In this document: in pieces, positions 2,959-51,425 of the stretch
How the letters are laid out: each line of letters starts with the position of its first letter
Position numbering within the stretch: position 1 is the stretch's first letter
DNA from: a virus
Lineage: Duplodnaviria > Caudoviricetes
Virus record (IMG/VR): IMGVR_UViG_3300021399_000111
Coordinates: 64,001 to 128,000 of that record
Reading direction: 5' to 3' (one strand)
DNA: 64,000 nucleotides
Position numbers and translations under genes: made by a program
Notes under the pieces: model-generated
Told to the model about the DNA's origin: nothing
The model's database searches: none
Seen by the model: only the letters and a program-made list of their open reading frames with translations

Positions 2959-3987
2959 TTAACCTTTTACGAGATCTTTTAATTCTTCATTAATAAGACT
3001 AATTGCTTCAACCTGATCAATTGTAGCATCTTTAATCTTCTTCCCTTTGCCTAAAAACTTTTCAATAATGTGAGAAATTCTAGGCTGCCAATATTCTGCA
3101 AACTTAACTCCATCTTCTGTCTCTCCTGTCGTATCGGATGAGCCAGGAATATTTGCAACAATATTCATAAATTCTTTCATCAATTCATCAAAATCAAGAG
3201 TTGCAGTAGTATCAAGATGAACATTTTCTCTTTTATCAGTAAAAAGTTCTGCTCCATCTTCTTCCATTTGTTTATCAAGAGCATCTCCAATCGCTTTTAC
3301 AAGATTCTCATAACTAAGATCGATATAATCGGGTGTATATTTAAAGCGAGAACCTGCCTCATATCTTGATGTTCCACGCATAAACATTACAACTTTTTCA
3401 TTACCTTCCGCATCAGGTATTGAACGAGTATAACCTATAATATCACACATTCTAGCGAGAACATTATTAGCGCGCTTATCAAGTGTAGGAACGATTTTAT
3501 TGAATTCAGTTCCATTCTCATTCTTAAAAGTCTTATCTGTTTCATGTGAAATAACAACTAAACCATATCCCATCTGAACAATTTGACGAAGACATTCATC
3601 AAATTCTTTTTCAACAAGACCATATCCTTTACCATATCCAATATCACCGATAGCATCTACATTATTATTTGCACAAATATATTTTACACAATAATCATAT
3701 GCAATATCAGCGGTATCAATAATAATAGTCTCAAATTTTTCTTTCGCTTCATCAGTTTTTAACTGACGAAGAACTTGTCTGAACTCACTCCAAGAATTAA
3801 TAGGAAGCGCCATCGCTCCGGGAATTGCGGAATAACCTTTTTCAAATGCAAGAAGAAAATGCTTAGGGAATTTAACTGCTGTAGTAGTCTTACCAGTTTT
3901 CCATCCGCCATACATAAATACTGAATATCCTCTCATATCGCGGCTTACCTGGTGCGGAGCTACACTAAAAATATCAATACTTGCCAT
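2959..3987 (-). CDS. AAA_24/Sak4-like phage NTP-binding (recombination) protein
   Basis: GGWKTGKTT Walker A, IIIDT Walker B, GYGKGY, ISH motifs; next to SSB. Confidence 0.8.
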   Translation of the reverse strand: MASIDIFSVAPHQVSRDMRGYSVFMYGGWKTGKTTTAVKFPKHFLLAFEKGYSAIPGAMALPINSWSEFRQVLRQLKTDEAKEKFETIIIDTADIAYDYCVKYICANNNVDAIGDIGYGKGYGLVEKEFDECLRQIVQMGYGLVVISHETDKTFKNENGTEFNKIVPTLDKRANNVLARMCDIIGYTRSIPDAEGNEKVVMFMRGTSRYEAGSRFKYTPDYIDLSYENLVKAIGDALDKQMEEDGAELFTDKRENVHLDTTATLDFDELMKEFMNIVANIPGSSDTTGETEDGVKFAEYWQPRISHIIEKFLGKGKKIKDATIDQVEAISLINEELKDLVKG

Positions 3988-20926: not shown

Positions 20927-21172
20927 TTAATCATTATTTATTTTGAATTGATAAAAAAAGCTTCCAATCCAAGAAAGTGTTCCTGCAAGTAATGGAATCT
21001 GATTAAGGGCTATCGAGATATGAACTAAACTCAATCCTTCAATAAGCACTTTACCTATTGTAATTTTAGCAATCCAGCCTACAAAATAACCAAACCAGAA
21101 GAAAAGAAATGGCTCAATTAAAAAGAATATAATGAAAAATATTAATACTTTATATAAATTATCTCTTTTCAT
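20927..21172 (-). CDS. Small membrane protein
   Basis: Hydrophobic; coupled to phosphoesterase gene. Confidence 0.6.
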   Translation of the reverse strand: MKRDNLYKVLIFFIIFFLIEPFLFFWFGYFVGWIAKITIGKVLIEGLSLVHISIALNQIPLLAGTLSWIGSFFYQFKINND

Positions 21173-21716
21173 TTATTTTATTTTTTATCCTTTCAATAAT
21201 ATCATCAAGAGACCATGGAGTACAATTATTAGTATCCATTTCACAATGAAAAATAAGTCCTTTATCCCAATCAGCAAATGGATCTTGTGTATGACTATGT
21301 CCACAAAGACTAATCATTTTTGCGGAAAGTGGTTTATCATCATCAAAATTGGAAGTAATACAAGGATAATGTGAAAGATAAAAATGATATTTACCATATT
21401 GAAGAAATTTACCTTCACAAATTTCAACAACATTCCAACAATGATTATAGAGTTTCATTCTATTATCACCATCATGGTTTCCGCGGATAATATGAATATT
21501 GCCTTTAAGCTGCTTAATACAATATAGTCCTTCTATATCATCATTAAGCATCATATCTCCAAGACAATAAATATCATCATCTGGATTTACAATATTATTC
21601 CAATTATGTATAATAGCATTATTCATTTCATATACAGAATCAAATCCGCGTGGGCGCCAAAGGAACTCGCGAGCATGACAAAAATGTGGATCACTAGACA
21701 TAAAAATTCTACCCAT
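21159..21716 (-). CDS. Calcineurin-like metallophosphoesterase
   Basis: SDPHFCH, LGD, GNHD, SHYP, GHSH. Confidence 0.88.
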   Translation of the reverse strand: MGRIFMSSDPHFCHAREFLWRPRGFDSVYEMNNAIIHNWNNIVNPDDDIYCLGDMMLNDDIEGLYCIKQLKGNIHIIRGNHDGDNRMKLYNHCWNVVEICEGKFLQYGKYHFYLSHYPCITSNFDDDKPLSAKMISLCGHSHTQDPFADWDKGLIFHCEMDTNNCTPWSLDDIIERIKNKINEKR

Positions 21717-22245
21717 TTGAAGTCTCCTTATTATTTACTTTGAATAAATGCTTTCTTTCTTGATCTGTATCGTCTATAATGTGAATAATATCAAAACCCT
21801 CTTCGAAAGTTGGCATAGTGATTTGTGTTGCCATTCTTCGGATTACCTGCTCAGGAACATAAAATCGAGTGTTAATACGATTTTCATTTCTGTGAAGAGC
21901 CCTCCATACAGGAACTTTAAAAAATACAATTTCAACACAACAATCTTTTAAAGACATTCCTAATGCACGAAGAAGTTTTGTACGGGATGCTTCATTAATA
22001 TGAGTGGCATCCGCAATAACAGTTTGTCCATTATCAAGAGCTTTTTTAATTTCAGATACAAAAATATCATAAACTTGTTTTTCTTTATGAAAATAATCTT
22101 CTCCATCTTCGAGTAAAGAAAATCGAATTTGATCACGAGAAACTAACTTATCAATATTTGCTGTTGGATGCTCATAAAGCTCATTTGCATAAGTAGATTT
22201 GCCCGAGCCGGGGATTCCACTCATCATAATCAATCTTTTGCTCAT
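21709..22245 (-). CDS. P-loop kinase (AAA_33, polynucleotide 5'-kinase-like)
   Basis: GIPGSGKST, SRDQIR, DATH, RNENR, VPEQVIRRM. Confidence 0.8.
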   Translation of the reverse strand: MSKRLIMMSGIPGSGKSTYANELYEHPTANIDKLVSRDQIRFSLLEDGEDYFHKEKQVYDIFVSEIKKALDNGQTVIADATHINEASRTKLLRALGMSLKDCCVEIVFFKVPVWRALHRNENRINTRFYVPEQVIRRMATQITMPTFEEGFDIIHIIDDTDQERKHLFKVNNKETSNG

Positions 22246-22905: not shown

Positions 22906-24090
22906 TTACTGGTGGTAACGAACTAGAAACTCATTAGATACTGCCTTGAAACTTCTAGTCCCATCTGGAGATCTAAATACGAGCCCTTCTCTCATACCTT
23001 CATCAATAACAGAAGTGCCAGTTGCAATTTTGAGTAACTCGTCAACAGTATCGGGAAGAATAAAATGCTCATTGACGATAGGAACCCAATGGATGCCATA
23101 TCTTTCAAGGAACTCTTTTGCTTCAATAGAATTCCATCTTCCATCCTGTGAAGTAATGAAATTAAAAGCACGGAAATCATGGTCAGCCATTCCATAGTAT
23201 CTTCTCTGAATGCCCGCGCCGAAAGTTTCTCCCTGGATAGTTACCCATTTAAGAGATTTATTGTTTTTAAGAATATCCTTAAGTACATTCTCAATATTGT
23301 ACTTTTTAGCCATTTCAAGATAAACATTAGTATCATAGAAACAAGCTTTGTCAGGAGTATCAAAAACTACATTTCGAGAGCAAACATAGAAATCATACTT
23401 TCCAAACTTATCTCTTTTCATAGTGAAAGTAGTGCTTGTACCATCTATCTTCTCAGTTGCAATCCACTCAGACTTATCTTCAAGAATCCAAGTCATGTTC
23501 TGGACTCTCTCTTCGTCAGTCTTTACAACCCAAGCAGGCCAGTTTCGTACATCTCTCTTCTTACCAAAAAGAAGAATAAATACTCTCCGCAGAAACTTAT
23601 TTCTCTTAATTACTTTACCCCATTTTCTTGCAATCTTAGGATGACGAGCAAGAGCTGCATTAATTCTAGCATCAGGGTTAGATTTAGCCTTTCTCTTATT
23701 ATCCTCTGGCTCAGCATAGGTTACGCCAAGCTTTTCAGTAAGGAAGTCTCCTTCTACAAGAGAAGTAGCATCCCAACCAAAGTCCTTTGCGCTCATAAGA
23801 AGACCCTGAGAATAAAAACCAGGATTTTTTCCACCAAAAGTATACTTTTGAGTTTTTACATTACCATGTTTCTTTTCAAGAAATGCAAACTCAGGCTTAG
23901 TAGTGTCTACATGAGAGTCGATTTCAAAATAAATTGCAAGATCTCCAGCATTGAAAGTCCCTTTTCTAACCATGACCTTCCAACCGCCAACTACAGCAGC
24001 TTCGCAGTTGTCAGAACCAACAATAGGCTCAATAGCATCAATTTTTACTACATAAGCGAGTTCTCTTACATTAGTATTAGGATTAAGCAT
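22906..24090 (-). CDS. ATP-dependent RNA ligase (DRB0094/Rnl2-like) with N-terminal OB-type domain
   Basis: YFEIDS, SQGLL, KTDEERVQN, motif I TEKIDGTS, QGE, EGLV, FKAVSNEFL. Confidence 0.88.
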   Translation of the reverse strand: MLNPNTNVRELAYVVKIDAIEPIVGSDNCEAAVVGGWKVMVRKGTFNAGDLAIYFEIDSHVDTTKPEFAFLEKKHGNVKTQKYTFGGKNPGFYSQGLLMSAKDFGWDATSLVEGDFLTEKLGVTYAEPEDNKRKAKSNPDARINAALARHPKIARKWGKVIKRNKFLRRVFILLFGKKRDVRNWPAWVVKTDEERVQNMTWILEDKSEWIATEKIDGTSTTFTMKRDKFGKYDFYVCSRNVVFDTPDKACFYDTNVYLEMAKKYNIENVLKDILKNNKSLKWVTIQGETFGAGIQRRYYGMADHDFRAFNFITSQDGRWNSIEAKEFLERYGIHWVPIVNEHFILPDTVDELLKIATGTSVIDEGMREGLVFRSPDGTRSFKAVSNEFLVRYHQ

Positions 24091-29001: not shown

Positions 29002-29106
29002 TTTTCTTTTCCTTTTTCTTTTGTTTCATTTTCTATAAATATTATAACAAAAATTTTATTAAAAATCAACTTTATGTTACTACACTCCCCACAAGAGTAT
29101 AAAGAA

Positions 29107-29457
29107 TGGAGATGACGGGAGTCGAACCCGTGTCTTGAAACCTTACTAATTATCAACCTTTTACGCAATAGTGTTTTTAAAGTGTTCTCTCACTTTTCGA
29201 GCTTTTCCTACTTCCACCACTTTATTTTGAGAAAATAAAGAAAACAATGTGTTTTTTATTCATAAAATCAAGCATTGACCAAACACGAGGAATAACTTGA
29301 AGTTCCATTAAAGAACTCAAGCAGCTGCCTGAGCAAGTCTTCTAGGAAAGTTTACAATTTTCTTGTCGTTTAAATTTATAGGTTGGTTGCATAACGCGCA
29401 TACCATTTCGTGCGAGTTAATAATATTCAAGCCCCAATCGATAGCCATTTCATCCCC
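29107..29457 (-). ncRNA. ssrA: tmRNA; tag (A)DKKIVNFPRRLAQAAA* at 29317-29367
   Basis: 5' GGGGATG pairs with 3' CATCTCC-A (G3.U), T-arm ACGGG-TTCGACT-CCCGT, 351 nt, internal ORF ending AAA-stop. Confidence 0.93.
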
Positions 29458-47025: not shown

Positions 47026-47135
47026 CAAGACACAATTAAAGCGTGGATTCGAACCACGATTACTTGACTTCCATCAAGCGTCCTTCCCCTTAGACGACTC
47101 TGGCTAGGAGCCAGTATGTTTGCTGTTTATGTCTT
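47026..47135 (-). ncRNA. Y-RNA-like motif copy 3 with embedded tRNA mimic (D, 6-nt-loop anticodon arm, T)
   Basis: AAGACAT-AAACAGCAA...CGTGG-TTCGAAT-CCACG...GTGTCTT-G. Confidence 0.7.
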
Positions 47136-49693: not shown

Positions 49694-49859
49694 TTGATAT
49701 ATATATTATATCATAAATTTTAATAAAAATCAAATGGTGTTTGCGGGCGCCGCCTCGGGAACTATTAAACGGAACATCAGGCGCTTTATATCCACGCCCG
49801 CCGCACCTCCAATATAAAAACGGGTTTTTGATTATGCTAGAACCCCTTAAAACTAGCGA

Positions 49860-49933
49860 TAGCGAGGGCAAGATTTGAACTTGCGACCTTCTGGGCATGA
49901 GCCAGATGAGCTTCCGGACTGCTCCACCTCGCG
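49860..49933 (-). tRNA. tRNA-Met(CAU), initiator-like
   Basis: C1:U72 mismatch, TCTGG-CT-CAT-GC-CCAGA. Confidence 0.88.
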
Positions 49934-49953
49934 ATATAGCATAGGGATAATTA

Positions 49954-50075
49954 CAAGACACTCAAGTTTTTGCTACCATTACACCATACAACCCCTAAAT
50001 TGCACTGGGATTCGAACCCAGACCAAAAAATTTGCAGTTTTCTTTTATTCTTGAAAAATTTGCTGTATGTGTCTC
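49954..50075 (-). ncRNA. Y-RNA-like motif copy 4 with circularly permuted tRNA domain (YrlA-like)
   Basis: GAGACAC-ATACAGCAA; then anticodon-like hairpin, T arm, loop-closed acceptor TGCAAT/GTTGTA, D arm; GTGTCTT-G. Confidence 0.75.
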
Positions 50076-50077
50076 AA

Positions 50078-50996
50078 TCACCTGACCGGGACTCGAACCC
50101 GGATTTGCAGCGTGAAGCTGATTATGAGTCTTGCACTCATATTTTTGACCAATCATCGTCAGAATATTTATTTATGTCAACTTTCTTTCGAGGAAGATTA
50201 AATTTATCGCACCATTTCCTTATAGCATTATCAGTTACTCCATATTGTAAACCTATCTGAGTAAAAGGCAAAGTACGAATTAATTTTTTTAATTCTTCTC
50301 TTGTAACAGGTAAATCTGTACAAGGAATAATTTGTTTTTTAGAAGAACATTCTCTACATCTTTGACTTTCTTTAGAAATTTCTTTCCCACAATCAATACA
50401 AAAATTCTTTTTTATATATTGTTTTCTATTTTTCCCATTTGTAGTATCTAATTGTTGATTACAATTAGGACAAACCCAACGAAGATTCTCTAATCTATCA
50501 TCATGATTTGAACCATTAATATGATCGAGAATTAGAATTAATTCTTTTCCTTGCCATATTGGTTCTTGTCCACAGATACTACATACATATGGAACATAAT
50601 TTCCTTTTACAAACCAATTTCTTAATGTTTTTTGATCAGCAGTTGAATTTTCTACAAAAACATTTTCTACTGTTCTTTTAATTGGTTCCTTTTTTTGTCC
50701 AAAATGTGAATAATCAAATTTTTCAATTTTTTCTTCTAAAAAATTTTTTAAATCTCCTGAGAAAGCTGTATATCCCAACTTTCTTGCTAATTCTCTAAAA
50801 GAATTAGACTGTTCAACAATTTGTTGTAATTCATTTTCATTATAATTATCAATTAAAGAACTCATATATTTCTCTCCTTTTTTTGATATTATATATGAAA
50901 ATTGAACTTACATAATTGAATTCGATTGTCCAAAAGTTTTCCTTTTAAACTAAAATCAACAAGGCTGCTGTCCTAGACCTGTTAGACGACCAGGCG
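50078..50996 (-). tRNA. tRNA-Glu(UUC) interrupted in the anticodon by an 845-nt insertion (exons 50996-50961 and 50115-50078, +/-1 nt)
   Basis: Joining the halves gives a full cloverleaf: acceptor CGCCTGG/TCAGGTG, GCAGC-CT-TTC-AC-GCTGC, CCGGG-TTCGAGT-CCCGG. Confidence 0.88.
50137..50865 (-). CDS. HNH homing endonuclease inside the tRNA-Glu insertion
   Basis: CSICG...LDHINGSNHDDRLENLRWVCPNC; second Zn motif; C-terminal HTH. Confidence 0.9.
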   Translation of the reverse strand: MSSLIDNYNENELQQIVEQSNSFRELARKLGYTAFSGDLKNFLEEKIEKFDYSHFGQKKEPIKRTVENVFVENSTADQKTLRNWFVKGNYVPYVCSICGQEPIWQGKELILILDHINGSNHDDRLENLRWVCPNCNQQLDTTNGKNRKQYIKKNFCIDCGKEISKESQRCRECSSKKQIIPCTDLPVTREELKKLIRTLPFTQIGLQYGVTDNAIRKWCDKFNLPRKKVDINKYSDDDWSKI

Positions 50997-51352
50997 AGAA
51001 TCGATTTTAGAGGATAATCGAGAACCCGTGCTCCCTATACGCCGAGTCAGCGGTTTTTGTTATGATTTATATACCGGTAGCAAACAGGTTTTCTCCGCAA
51101 AGCCCGGTTAAAAAGACAATACCTTAACTACTTGGTTATGACCGCATTAACACCTAGTGTCTGCCGCCACTCGGATTTGCACCGAGGATTTTGTCTTATT
51201 CTCCACGATAGCCTGCCGATACAGCGCGCCCACATCTGTTACTCTCTAGCTACTAGAGCGAGATTCGGACTATCCTCCAATCGGTTATCTACCCTTTGTG
51301 GAAATGAAGTCGTCCTGCCCCACTCCGAAGAGGTTGCGTGTCCTGACTTCAA

Positions 51353-51425
51353 TGACGGATGCGAGATTCGAACACGCGTTCCCCGACTGAGAATCGGGAG
51401 TCCTGAGCCACTAGACGAATCCGCC
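51353..51425 (-). tRNA. tRNA-Glu(CUC)
   Basis: CCCGA-TT-CTC-AG-TCGGG. Confidence 0.9.

Follow-up and report, generated by a model that had tools for sequence, protein, structure and literature searches.

How could a phage obtain a working tRNA from a gene whose anticodon loop is interrupted by 845 nt with an endonuclease gene inside? The question is raised by a tRNA-Glu(UUC) gene of a virus of the Caudoviricetes (IMG/VR record IMGVR_UViG_3300021399_000111), whose record is a complete genome of 141,935 bp with direct terminal repeats and a G+C content of 33%. We analysed bases 64001-128000 of this record, a stretch of 64,000 nt that is called the window below and to which positions refer unless a relative is named. 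A sequence-only reading had noticed the insert and proposed a minimal mobile intron, cut out by protein nucleases at an anticodon-nuclease site and sealed by phage enzymes. The insert proves to be a tRNA-shaped mobile intron-like element carrying an HNH homing endonuclease, an identification that we hold with high confidence. Its most likely fate, to which we give a probability of about 0.55 on the strength of sequence comparison, would be that of a mobile intron excised by RNase P and RNase Z, with the outer tRNA resealed by a phage RNA ligase.

The split tRNA-Glu(UUC) gene

The outer gene is read on the minus strand and consists of three parts:

50961-50996, minus strand: exon 1 of the outer tRNA-Glu(UUC), with the acceptor 5' strand, the D-arm, the anticodon-stem 5' strand GCAGC and C32 U33 U34
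50116-50960, minus strand: tRNA-shaped intron of 845 nt, beginning with inner G1 (50960) and ending with U73 (50116), the inner tail base
50078-50115, minus strand: exon 2 of the outer tRNA-Glu(UUC), starting with U35 C36 A37 C38 and GCTGC (anticodon-stem 3' strand)

The boundaries were set by the requirement for a 7-nt outer anticodon loop together with the inner cloverleaf described below. The last letters of exon 1 are ...GCAGC-CTT, up to 50961, and exon 2 opens with TCAC-GCTGC at 50115. When the halves are joined without 50116-50960 or 50117-50961, ARAGORN calls tRNA-Glu(ttc) at its default threshold, as expected from the earlier claim that removal of 845 nt restores a cloverleaf, and its intron mode returns c[50077,50997] Glu(ttc) with an 845-nt intron. 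The outer body is typical of tRNA-Glu, having a U13-G22 pair and a 4-nt variable loop, which we take to be identity features of this tRNA; the remainder of exon 2 comprises this loop, the T-arm, the acceptor 3' strand and discriminator A, and CCA is not encoded.

Over the whole genome, default ARAGORN finds 25 tRNA genes and a transfer-messenger RNA (tmRNA), all on the window's minus strand. The sole Glu tRNA besides the split one is CUC, an observation first made for the window that extends to the entire genome. Glu codons in long open reading frames (ORFs) are GAA in 1910 cases versus GAG in 429 (82% GAA). The split gene, which is the genome's single UUC copy, is the only reader of this dominant codon, while the rare GAG keeps a phage tRNA of its own. 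Both default ARAGORN and Rfam are blind to the split gene.

A tRNA shape inside the anticodon loop

Placed within the anticodon loop of a tRNA gene that is complete in all other respects, the insert forms a second, inner cloverleaf, whose own 'anticodon loop' is occupied by a leader and the HNH ORF. In order of transcription its parts are:

50954-50960, minus strand: inner acceptor stem 5' strand GTTGATT, pairing 7/7 with 50117-50123
50936-50950, minus strand: inner D-arm GTTT-AAAAGGA-AAAC, with GG in the loop (family pairing)
50928-50935, minus strand: inner anticodon-like stem 5' strand TTTTGGAC, whose partner is GTCAAAA at 50143-50149 (codons W-S-K)
50866-50927, minus strand: HNH leader, inside the inner 'anticodon loop', with an AT-rich box TATATAAT and a ribosome-binding site GGAG at 50874-50877
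50137-50865, minus strand: HNH homing-endonuclease gene, 242 aa, last codons W-S-K-I-stop
50124-50140, minus strand: inner T-arm ATGAG-TGCAAGA-CTCAT with a 7-nt loop, holding the TGA stop codon at 50137-50139
50117-50123, minus strand: inner acceptor stem 3' strand AATCAGC, after which the intron ends with one tail base, T at 50116, in the discriminator position

Two or three linker bases separate the inner acceptor stem from the D-arm. The 7-bp pairing of the insert ends seen earlier is thus the inner acceptor stem, and the small hairpin described over the stop codon is there and can be reread as the inner T-arm. With its ends at tRNA positions +1 and 73 the insert is a full tRNA-shaped shell, and the epithet 'minimal' has to be dropped. 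The shell was recognised through the leader. A first leader pattern, built from three copies, gave matches that were mostly due to chance; among them were genuine tRNA genes, matching via their own D-arm and anticodon stem, and it was this match to true D-arms that revealed the insert as tRNA-shaped. Minimum-free-energy folding of the single sequence recovers the acceptor stem and the T-arm and mis-pairs the D region.

The insert is made up of a 95-nt leader, the ORF and 21 nt past the stop codon, so that coding sequence and RNA structure overlap: the final codons of the HNH gene also supply one strand of each of two helices, the 3' strand in the anticodon-like stem and the 5' strand in the T-stem. 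The leader had been credited with its own promoter and ribosome-binding site. The latter is present, GGAG lying 9 nt ahead of the ATG, and the AT-rich box is conserved among relatives; a simple consensus scan found no sigma-70 promoter in the leader. The ORF itself belongs to PHROG 10822 'HNH endonuclease' (1.1e-38), matches Pfam HNH and HNH_3 below their cut-offs, and holds a CxxC...DH.N...N...CxxC motif with flanking zinc ligands. Nine residues (C95, C98, D114, H115, N117, N127, C132, C135 and N136) are invariant in six relatives. A PDB sequence search with the HNH protein returned nothing useful.

Covariation across the shell family

Is the inner cloverleaf a real RNA structure or an accident of one sequence? 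Relatives of the HNH protein were taken from IMG/VR and metagenomes, and yielded a shell family of 17 distinct HNH-bearing members in tRNA-Glu and tRNA-Asp genes, together with about ten ORF-less versions. An automatic scan for nested stems at 6/7 pairs gave mostly noise, and a match was retained only if it had a D-arm as well as a T-arm.

Acceptor stem, D-arm and T-arm fold throughout the family. In the 17 members, standard pairs occupy 119/119 cells of the acceptor stem, 68/68 of the D-stem and 85/85 of the T-stem. Conservation of the terminal stem, which the sequence-only reading had named as a check, is accordingly complete, and acceptor pair 4 occurs as G-C, A-U, C-G and U-A. Covariation was counted on a MAFFT alignment of whole introns, covering the 16 of 17 that could be aligned: 98.8% of cells are paired, as opposed to 84.6 +/- 1.3% in shuffles (0/500), and both sides have changed in 9 of 16 pairs where 3.5 are expected (0/500 shuffles). 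Sliding the partner strands as a control lowers pairing to 58% or less. The anticodon-like stem is 7/7 in 14 of the 17 members and shows compensatory changes despite having one coding strand (CTAGGAC/GTCTTAG in L163, TTTGGTC/GACTAAA in L136, these handles denoting relatives' loci). Even the stop codon takes part, TGA/TAA covarying with C/T on the opposite T-stem strand. When the ORF is trimmed out, default ARAGORN calls the shell a tRNA in 7 of 17 members and in 0 of 140 shuffles.

The ORF-less versions, found in Glu, Asn, Lys and suppressor tRNAs, are shells of 46-101 nt. They include two in L094, one of 77 nt in tRNA-Glu and one of 53 nt (minihelix plus CCA) in a second tRNA; a 59-nt shell in a tRNA-Asn of the genome that also holds L111; and a 101-nt copy in L163 that keeps the last codons of its lost ORF (DDWKKI-stop). 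Comparison of L155 and L158 reveals a compensatory A-U to G-C change in the T-stem. The ORF-less copies keep the cloverleaf, so the shell is retained with no mRNA to serve. As a separate observation, in L161/L145 the tRNA that holds an ORF-less tRNA-shaped intron is itself an amber suppressor, tRNA(CUA).

No known intron class fits

Group I introns are established in the anticodon loops of bacterial tRNA genes, for instance in cyanobacterial and plastid tRNA-Leu(UAA) and in tRNA-fMet with I-Ssp6803I. A self-splicing element, either with a group I core hidden in the ORF or with the shell acting as a small ribozyme of a new kind, is therefore the first alternative to consider: no other kind of intron is established in bacterial tRNA genes, and group I introns often carry HNH genes. 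The data leave it very little room. Rfam intron and ribozyme families have no match in 49700-51400 even at E<=10, a search that includes the P3-P9 core of Intron_gpI, and none in loci L094, L095 and L085 at E<=1. The window's intron ends ...CAGCU and those of relatives end in A or U, never providing the terminal G of group I introns; the last base of exon 1, which in group I would be U, is G34 in Asp members and C36 in the Glu members split at 36/37. Finally, a P3-P9 core would not fit into ORF-less copies of 46-77 nt, which excludes any ribozyme of group I size. We regard self-splicing as very improbable.

Other classes fare no better, as the sequence-only reading had argued. The intron starts GUUGA rather than the GUGYG of group II, has no Rfam group II match, and its ORF encodes an HNH protein and not a reverse transcriptase. 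Its two splice sites, one on each strand, meet at the foot of the 7-bp inner acceptor stem, an arrangement distinct from the archaeal bulge-helix-bulge. What the insert does resemble is a nested tRNA, with ends at tRNA +1 and at 73 or CCA76, five members with 2-nt tails deviating from this rule.

Insert boundaries and the inner tRNA

Across the family the exon-1 boundary, placed by the 7-nt outer loop requirement, always falls immediately before inner G1, and G1-C72 is present in 17/17 members. The outer register, by contrast with this fixed inner position, varies: the window, L085 and the Asp group are split at 34/35, L082 and L106 at 35/36, and seven Glu members at 36/37. RNase P, if it recognised the inner tRNA shape, would be expected to cut in just this way, always before inner G1. 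The link that had been drawn between the junction and the wobble-base site of anticodon nucleases is hence not general.

The 3' side is more variable. The window has a tail of 1 nt after the inner acceptor stem, five members have 2 nt and eleven have 4 nt; the 4-nt tails are NCCA in 9/11 and NCAA in 2/11, so that in 9 of the 17 members the intron is exactly a tRNA from +1 to CCA76. Tail type goes together with the way in which neighbouring tRNA genes end: CCA is encoded in 3 of 48 neighbours at loci with 1-2-nt tails and in 44 of 50 at loci with 4-nt tails, counts that are not corrected for phylogeny. The Asp subgroup holds both tail states, and the link is therefore not a single-clade effect. 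It would be expected if the inner 3' end were made by the ordinary tRNA 3'-end machinery, with RNase Z cleaving behind the discriminator in arrays whose CCA is added afterwards and behind A76 in arrays that encode it. The T. maritima tRNase Z is described as cutting exactly after A76 of CCA-containing precursors (PMC1540738). In the window, where CCA is encoded in 0 of 21 neighbouring tRNA genes, the fit to cuts by RNase P and RNase Z is exact, at U34|G1 and U73|U35.

Two simpler accounts of the 3' cut were rejected. A ruler measuring one fixed distance from the inner or the outer tRNA does not accommodate tails of 1, 2 and 4 nt in three registers, and a -1:73 pair that would extend the inner helix in members with 2-nt tails fails for the window itself.

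Proposed excision by tRNA-maturation enzymes and sealing by a phage ligase

The proposal that these positions suggest runs as follows. By its shape the shell would make the precursor look like an ordinary tRNA to host end-maturation enzymes. One cut, by RNase P, would fall between U34 and inner G1 and give exon 1 a 3'-OH; the other, by RNase Z, would separate the inner discriminator U73 from U35, which would then carry a 5'-phosphate. The outer tRNA fold would hold both halves together after the cuts, and the phage ligase would seal the anticodon-loop nick to give a tRNA reading GAA. The sequences show the anatomy and covariation of the shell, the mobility of the element, a ligase gene and the tail/CCA link; the acting nucleases, the ligation and the production of mature tRNA are what we infer here.

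The genes for sealing and end healing lie together, as had been noted, and their profile matches bear out the earlier assignments:

22906-24090, minus strand: ATP-dependent RNA ligase of the NgrRnl/DraRnl (Rnl5) type, 394 aa (PF09414 6e-24, PF21189)
21709-22245, minus strand: P-loop polynucleotide-kinase-like (Pnkp-like) gene, adjoining the ligase region
21159-21716, minus strand: calcineurin-type phosphoesterase (metallophosphoesterase) gene, adjoining the ligase region

The ligase combines an N-terminal OB domain (PF21189) with a nucleotidyltransferase domain (PF09414). Its closest solved relative is the Naegleria gruberi RNA ligase (PDB 5cot, 2.8e-29), and it scores 99 bits against TIGR02306, below the equivalog cut-off of 151. 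NgrRnl seals nicks between 3'-OH and 5'-phosphate ends, the kind of ends left by RNase P and RNase Z; on the route proposed here no kinase or phosphoesterase would be required. Both would come into play only after cuts that leave cyclic-phosphate and 5'-OH ends. The Rnl1 family (PF09511) has no match in the genome, but control genomes gave none either. Homologues of EndA (PF01974), RtcB and metallo-beta-lactamase are absent from the window's genome, the PF01974 search having detected control genomes, so the nucleases would be those of the host. An RNA ligase occurs in G000, G001, G003, G004 and G008; among relatives, the ligase family is found in the genomes of L082, L084/L087, L111 and L095, with weak matches in three others.

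An adjacent kinase, phosphoesterase and ligase also suit another scheme, close to that of the sequence-only reading, in which cuts of the anticodon-nuclease or toxin type would leave 2',3'-cyclic phosphate and 5'-OH ends to be healed by the kinase and phosphoesterase and sealed by the ligase. A 3' cut by an enzyme other than RNase Z could moreover fit the tails of 1, 2 and 4 nt that no RNase Z rule explains. Neither the tail/CCA link nor the exact +1-to-CCA shape of the intron would follow from such a scheme, and the junction is fixed relative to inner G1, not to the outer anticodon. No candidate nuclease emerged, EndA, RtcB and metallo-beta-lactamase homologues are missing from the genome, and a healing-and-sealing cassette is to be expected in such phages anyway as a counter to host anticodon nucleases. 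We consider it distinctly improbable. Of the earlier proposal, then, two parts are supported, an element that looks like a mobile, protein-dependent intron and a ligase that could seal the loop; anticodon-nuclease cuts healed by Pnk give way to ends that point to RNase P and RNase Z.

Mobility, and the case for an unspliced insertion

The HNH proteins of the family are 50-65% identical, and some pairs of loci bear the mark of transfer: introns are 94.8% identical between L106 and L082 where the outer tRNAs are 81% identical, and 82% versus 65% between L137 and L152. Introns more alike than their host tRNAs mean that the element moves between diverged alleles, by recent horizontal homing. Judging from these comparisons, the HNH element spreads as DNA, its targets being the tRNA-Glu and tRNA-Asp genes of related phages. 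The same excess of intron over exon similarity led us to reject compensatory changes between the outer tRNA halves as a sign of selection after insertion. Free-standing HNH relatives lie directly after an intact tRNA-Glu(UUC) in L073, L081 and L093. An intron-less allele, which the sequence-only reading had suggested seeking, was looked for with an exact 28-nt pattern of the spliced junction and had no match in IMG/VR, and BLAST of the split-tRNA region against a phage collection gave tRNA fragments and matches to the HNH core, with no close relative.

HNH-family ORFs also fill inserts in other tRNA genes, a tRNA-Gln(UUG) (L089, about 1450-2263) and a tRNA-Met(CAU) (L078 in G005, about 990-1830). 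The L089 and L078 inserts have almost no non-coding sequence and no tRNA-shaped shell, and are either plain gene disruptions or subject to a different removal mechanism. The complete genome of L089 has no PF09414 ligase match. In-frame TAG codons were observed in the HNH ORFs of L137, L152, L126, L127, L129, L163, L123 and L132; the arrays of TAG-containing relatives hold tRNAs with anticodon CUA (ARAGORN 'Pyl' in L005 and L095), and these relatives appear to be TAG-recoded phages.

Several of these facts weigh against splicing by RNase P, RNase Z and ligase, and most of them favour the main rival, a selfish HNH element that killed the tRNA-Glu gene and whose flanking halves are never rejoined. 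Since the intron is more conserved than its host tRNAs, it could persist unspliced by homing alone, and the L089 case, a tRNA-Gln insertion lacking shell and ligase, indicates that this nuclease family can also simply disrupt tRNA genes. In L129 the outer tRNA-Glu (about 1060-2010) is damaged in both T-arm and acceptor stem, and no tRNA is called there once the intron is taken out; among the 17 hosts this one looks like a pseudogene. Loss of a tRNA seems tolerable, the phage set being incomplete anyway, with Phe and His tRNAs missing. On this explanation the shell would serve the element itself: RNase P and RNase Z might, for instance, free the HNH mRNA from a tRNA polycistron and stabilise it. 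Further difficulties concern the splicing route itself. The window's shell is degenerate, with a TGCAAGA T-loop and an anticodon-like stem of 6/7, and once trimmed of its ORF it is called by ARAGORN at a relaxed threshold only, not at default. The 2-nt tails (TA, AT, AA) extend one base beyond an RNase Z cut after N73, and with NCAA and ACCT tails occurring as well, no single 3' rule covers the whole family. Co-occurrence with a ligase is only weakly informative, as large phages with tRNA arrays often carry one.

Against the rival stand the ORF-less shells, which have no mRNA to serve and yet keep the cloverleaf, with a compensatory change, in intact tRNAs. The outer tRNAs themselves are preserved: 16 of 17 are called at the default threshold once the intron is removed, although the HNH proteins are only 50-65% identical. 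The earlier remark that both halves are undecayed in the window is weak evidence by itself, as any clean insertion gives the same result. The interrupted gene, moreover, is the sole GAA reader in a genome that has kept its tRNA for rare GAG, and cuts at the shell ends would give a nicked loop whose ends can be ligated, and the phage has the gene for a nick-sealing RNA ligase. We judge an unspliced selfish insertion unlikely, though it is the most serious competitor of excision by RNase P and RNase Z.

Relation to known systems

The closest precedent is the 'enigmatic' tRNA introns of Lak megaphages, which Rfam assigns to no class and one of which, in tRNA-Thr(TGT), 'itself may encode a tRNA' (Devoto et al. 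2019, PMC6784885). Like the window element they interrupt phage tRNA genes in the anticodon region; they are short and have no ORF, and no family, covariation or mechanism was described for them (PMC6784885). The present element differs by its HNH gene in the inner anticodon loop and by its family, with Glu and Asp targets, three registers and CCA-matched tails. In the literature we found no description of a tRNA-shaped intron class beyond that report (PMC6784885), and the window element is an HNH-bearing form of a barely described kind of intron.

With group I introns the family shares the anticodon-loop site, an RNA shell for removal with a losable homing-endonuclease passenger, and mobility between alleles. 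It has no P1-P10 ribozyme, and its removal would need host proteins instead of RNA catalysis. Archaeal and eukaryal tRNA introns are recognised by a bulge-helix-bulge motif, cut by the EndA/Sen endonuclease and sealed by the RtcB or Trl1 ligase. Splicing of an anticodon-region intron by a protein endonuclease and a ligase, as proposed here, is similar in principle. There, however, two 3-nt bulges lie 4 bp apart and the ends are cyclic phosphate and 5'-OH; here a single 7-bp helix brings the sites together at its base, and 3'-OH and 5'-phosphate ends are expected. An embedded tRNA-shaped module that recruits RNase P and RNase Z is known from mitochondrial 'tRNA punctuation' and from MALAT1 mascRNA, whose flanks are not rejoined, whereas the flanks here are the halves of another tRNA and a ligase is on hand.

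In phage T4, repair of the anticodon loop after cleavage by the PrrC nuclease is carried out by Pnkp and Rnl1. The window's phage likewise has a predicted kinase/phosphatase and RNA ligase able to reseal a broken anticodon loop. In T4 the break is a host attack, and here it would be intron excision; the ligase, too, is of the NgrRnl/DraRnl type and not Rnl1. Free-standing homing endonucleases such as T4 SegB occur in phage tRNA clusters (PMC2330249), and the close HNH relatives of L073, L081 and L093 are likewise free, whereas the window's HNH gene lies inside a tRNA, wrapped in a tRNA-shaped shell.

More generally, phages may carry a third kind of tRNA intron besides the self-splicing and the archaeal/eukaryal ones, a whole-tRNA mimic excised by RNase P and RNase Z and rejoined by an RNA ligase, with a 3' tail adapted to the host's maturation style; we put this at even odds. 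If spliced as proposed, these elements would represent protein-only tRNA splicing in bacteria and phages, assembled from universal tRNA-maturation enzymes and an RNA ligase. They would give a new answer to how introns persist in bacterial tRNA genes, and phage RNA ligases would gain a role beyond the repair of anticodon-nuclease damage. Standard tRNA finders overlook such genes, which biases phage tRNA repertoires and the inferences on codon usage drawn from them. With ORF-less and ORF-bearing forms, three registers and tails with and without CCA, the family is a ready test system.

Other features of the tRNA array

The array and its surroundings hold further RNA elements:

49954-50075, minus strand: element adjoining exon 2 on its 3' side; its body is AT-rich and its T-arm perfect, and it contains a weak tRNA-model match at 50001-50063 (30.9 bits)
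47033-47105, minus strand: tRNA-like gene with an 8-nt anticodon loop ('ggaa') and two acceptor-stem mismatches
51000-51350, minus strand: region of about 350 nt that separates tRNA-Glu(CUC) from exon 1 and has a higher G+C content than the ORFs
29104-29457, minus strand: phage tmRNA (71.9 bits), with tag peptide DKKIVNFPRRLAQAAA

Calls of 4-base anticodons similar to that at 47033-47105 occur in L005 ('atca') and L095 ('tgtt'). These genes could be tRNAs of the Phe/Asn type with an extra loop base, and that base may bear on the unexplained extra base of introns with 2-nt tails. The region at 51000-51350 has no ORF of note and no Rfam match, and may be another structured RNA of the array. Near the split tRNAs of relatives there are sub-threshold matches to YrlA (Y RNA-like), in L094 at 3464-3562 (40.6 bits) and in L085 at 2776-2886 (31.5 bits). 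Between tRNA genes of L095, at 2763-2821, lies a sub-threshold match to the type-P1 twister ribozyme (40.2 bits against a gathering threshold of 67.2, E 4e-6). A tmRNA is likewise present in L003.

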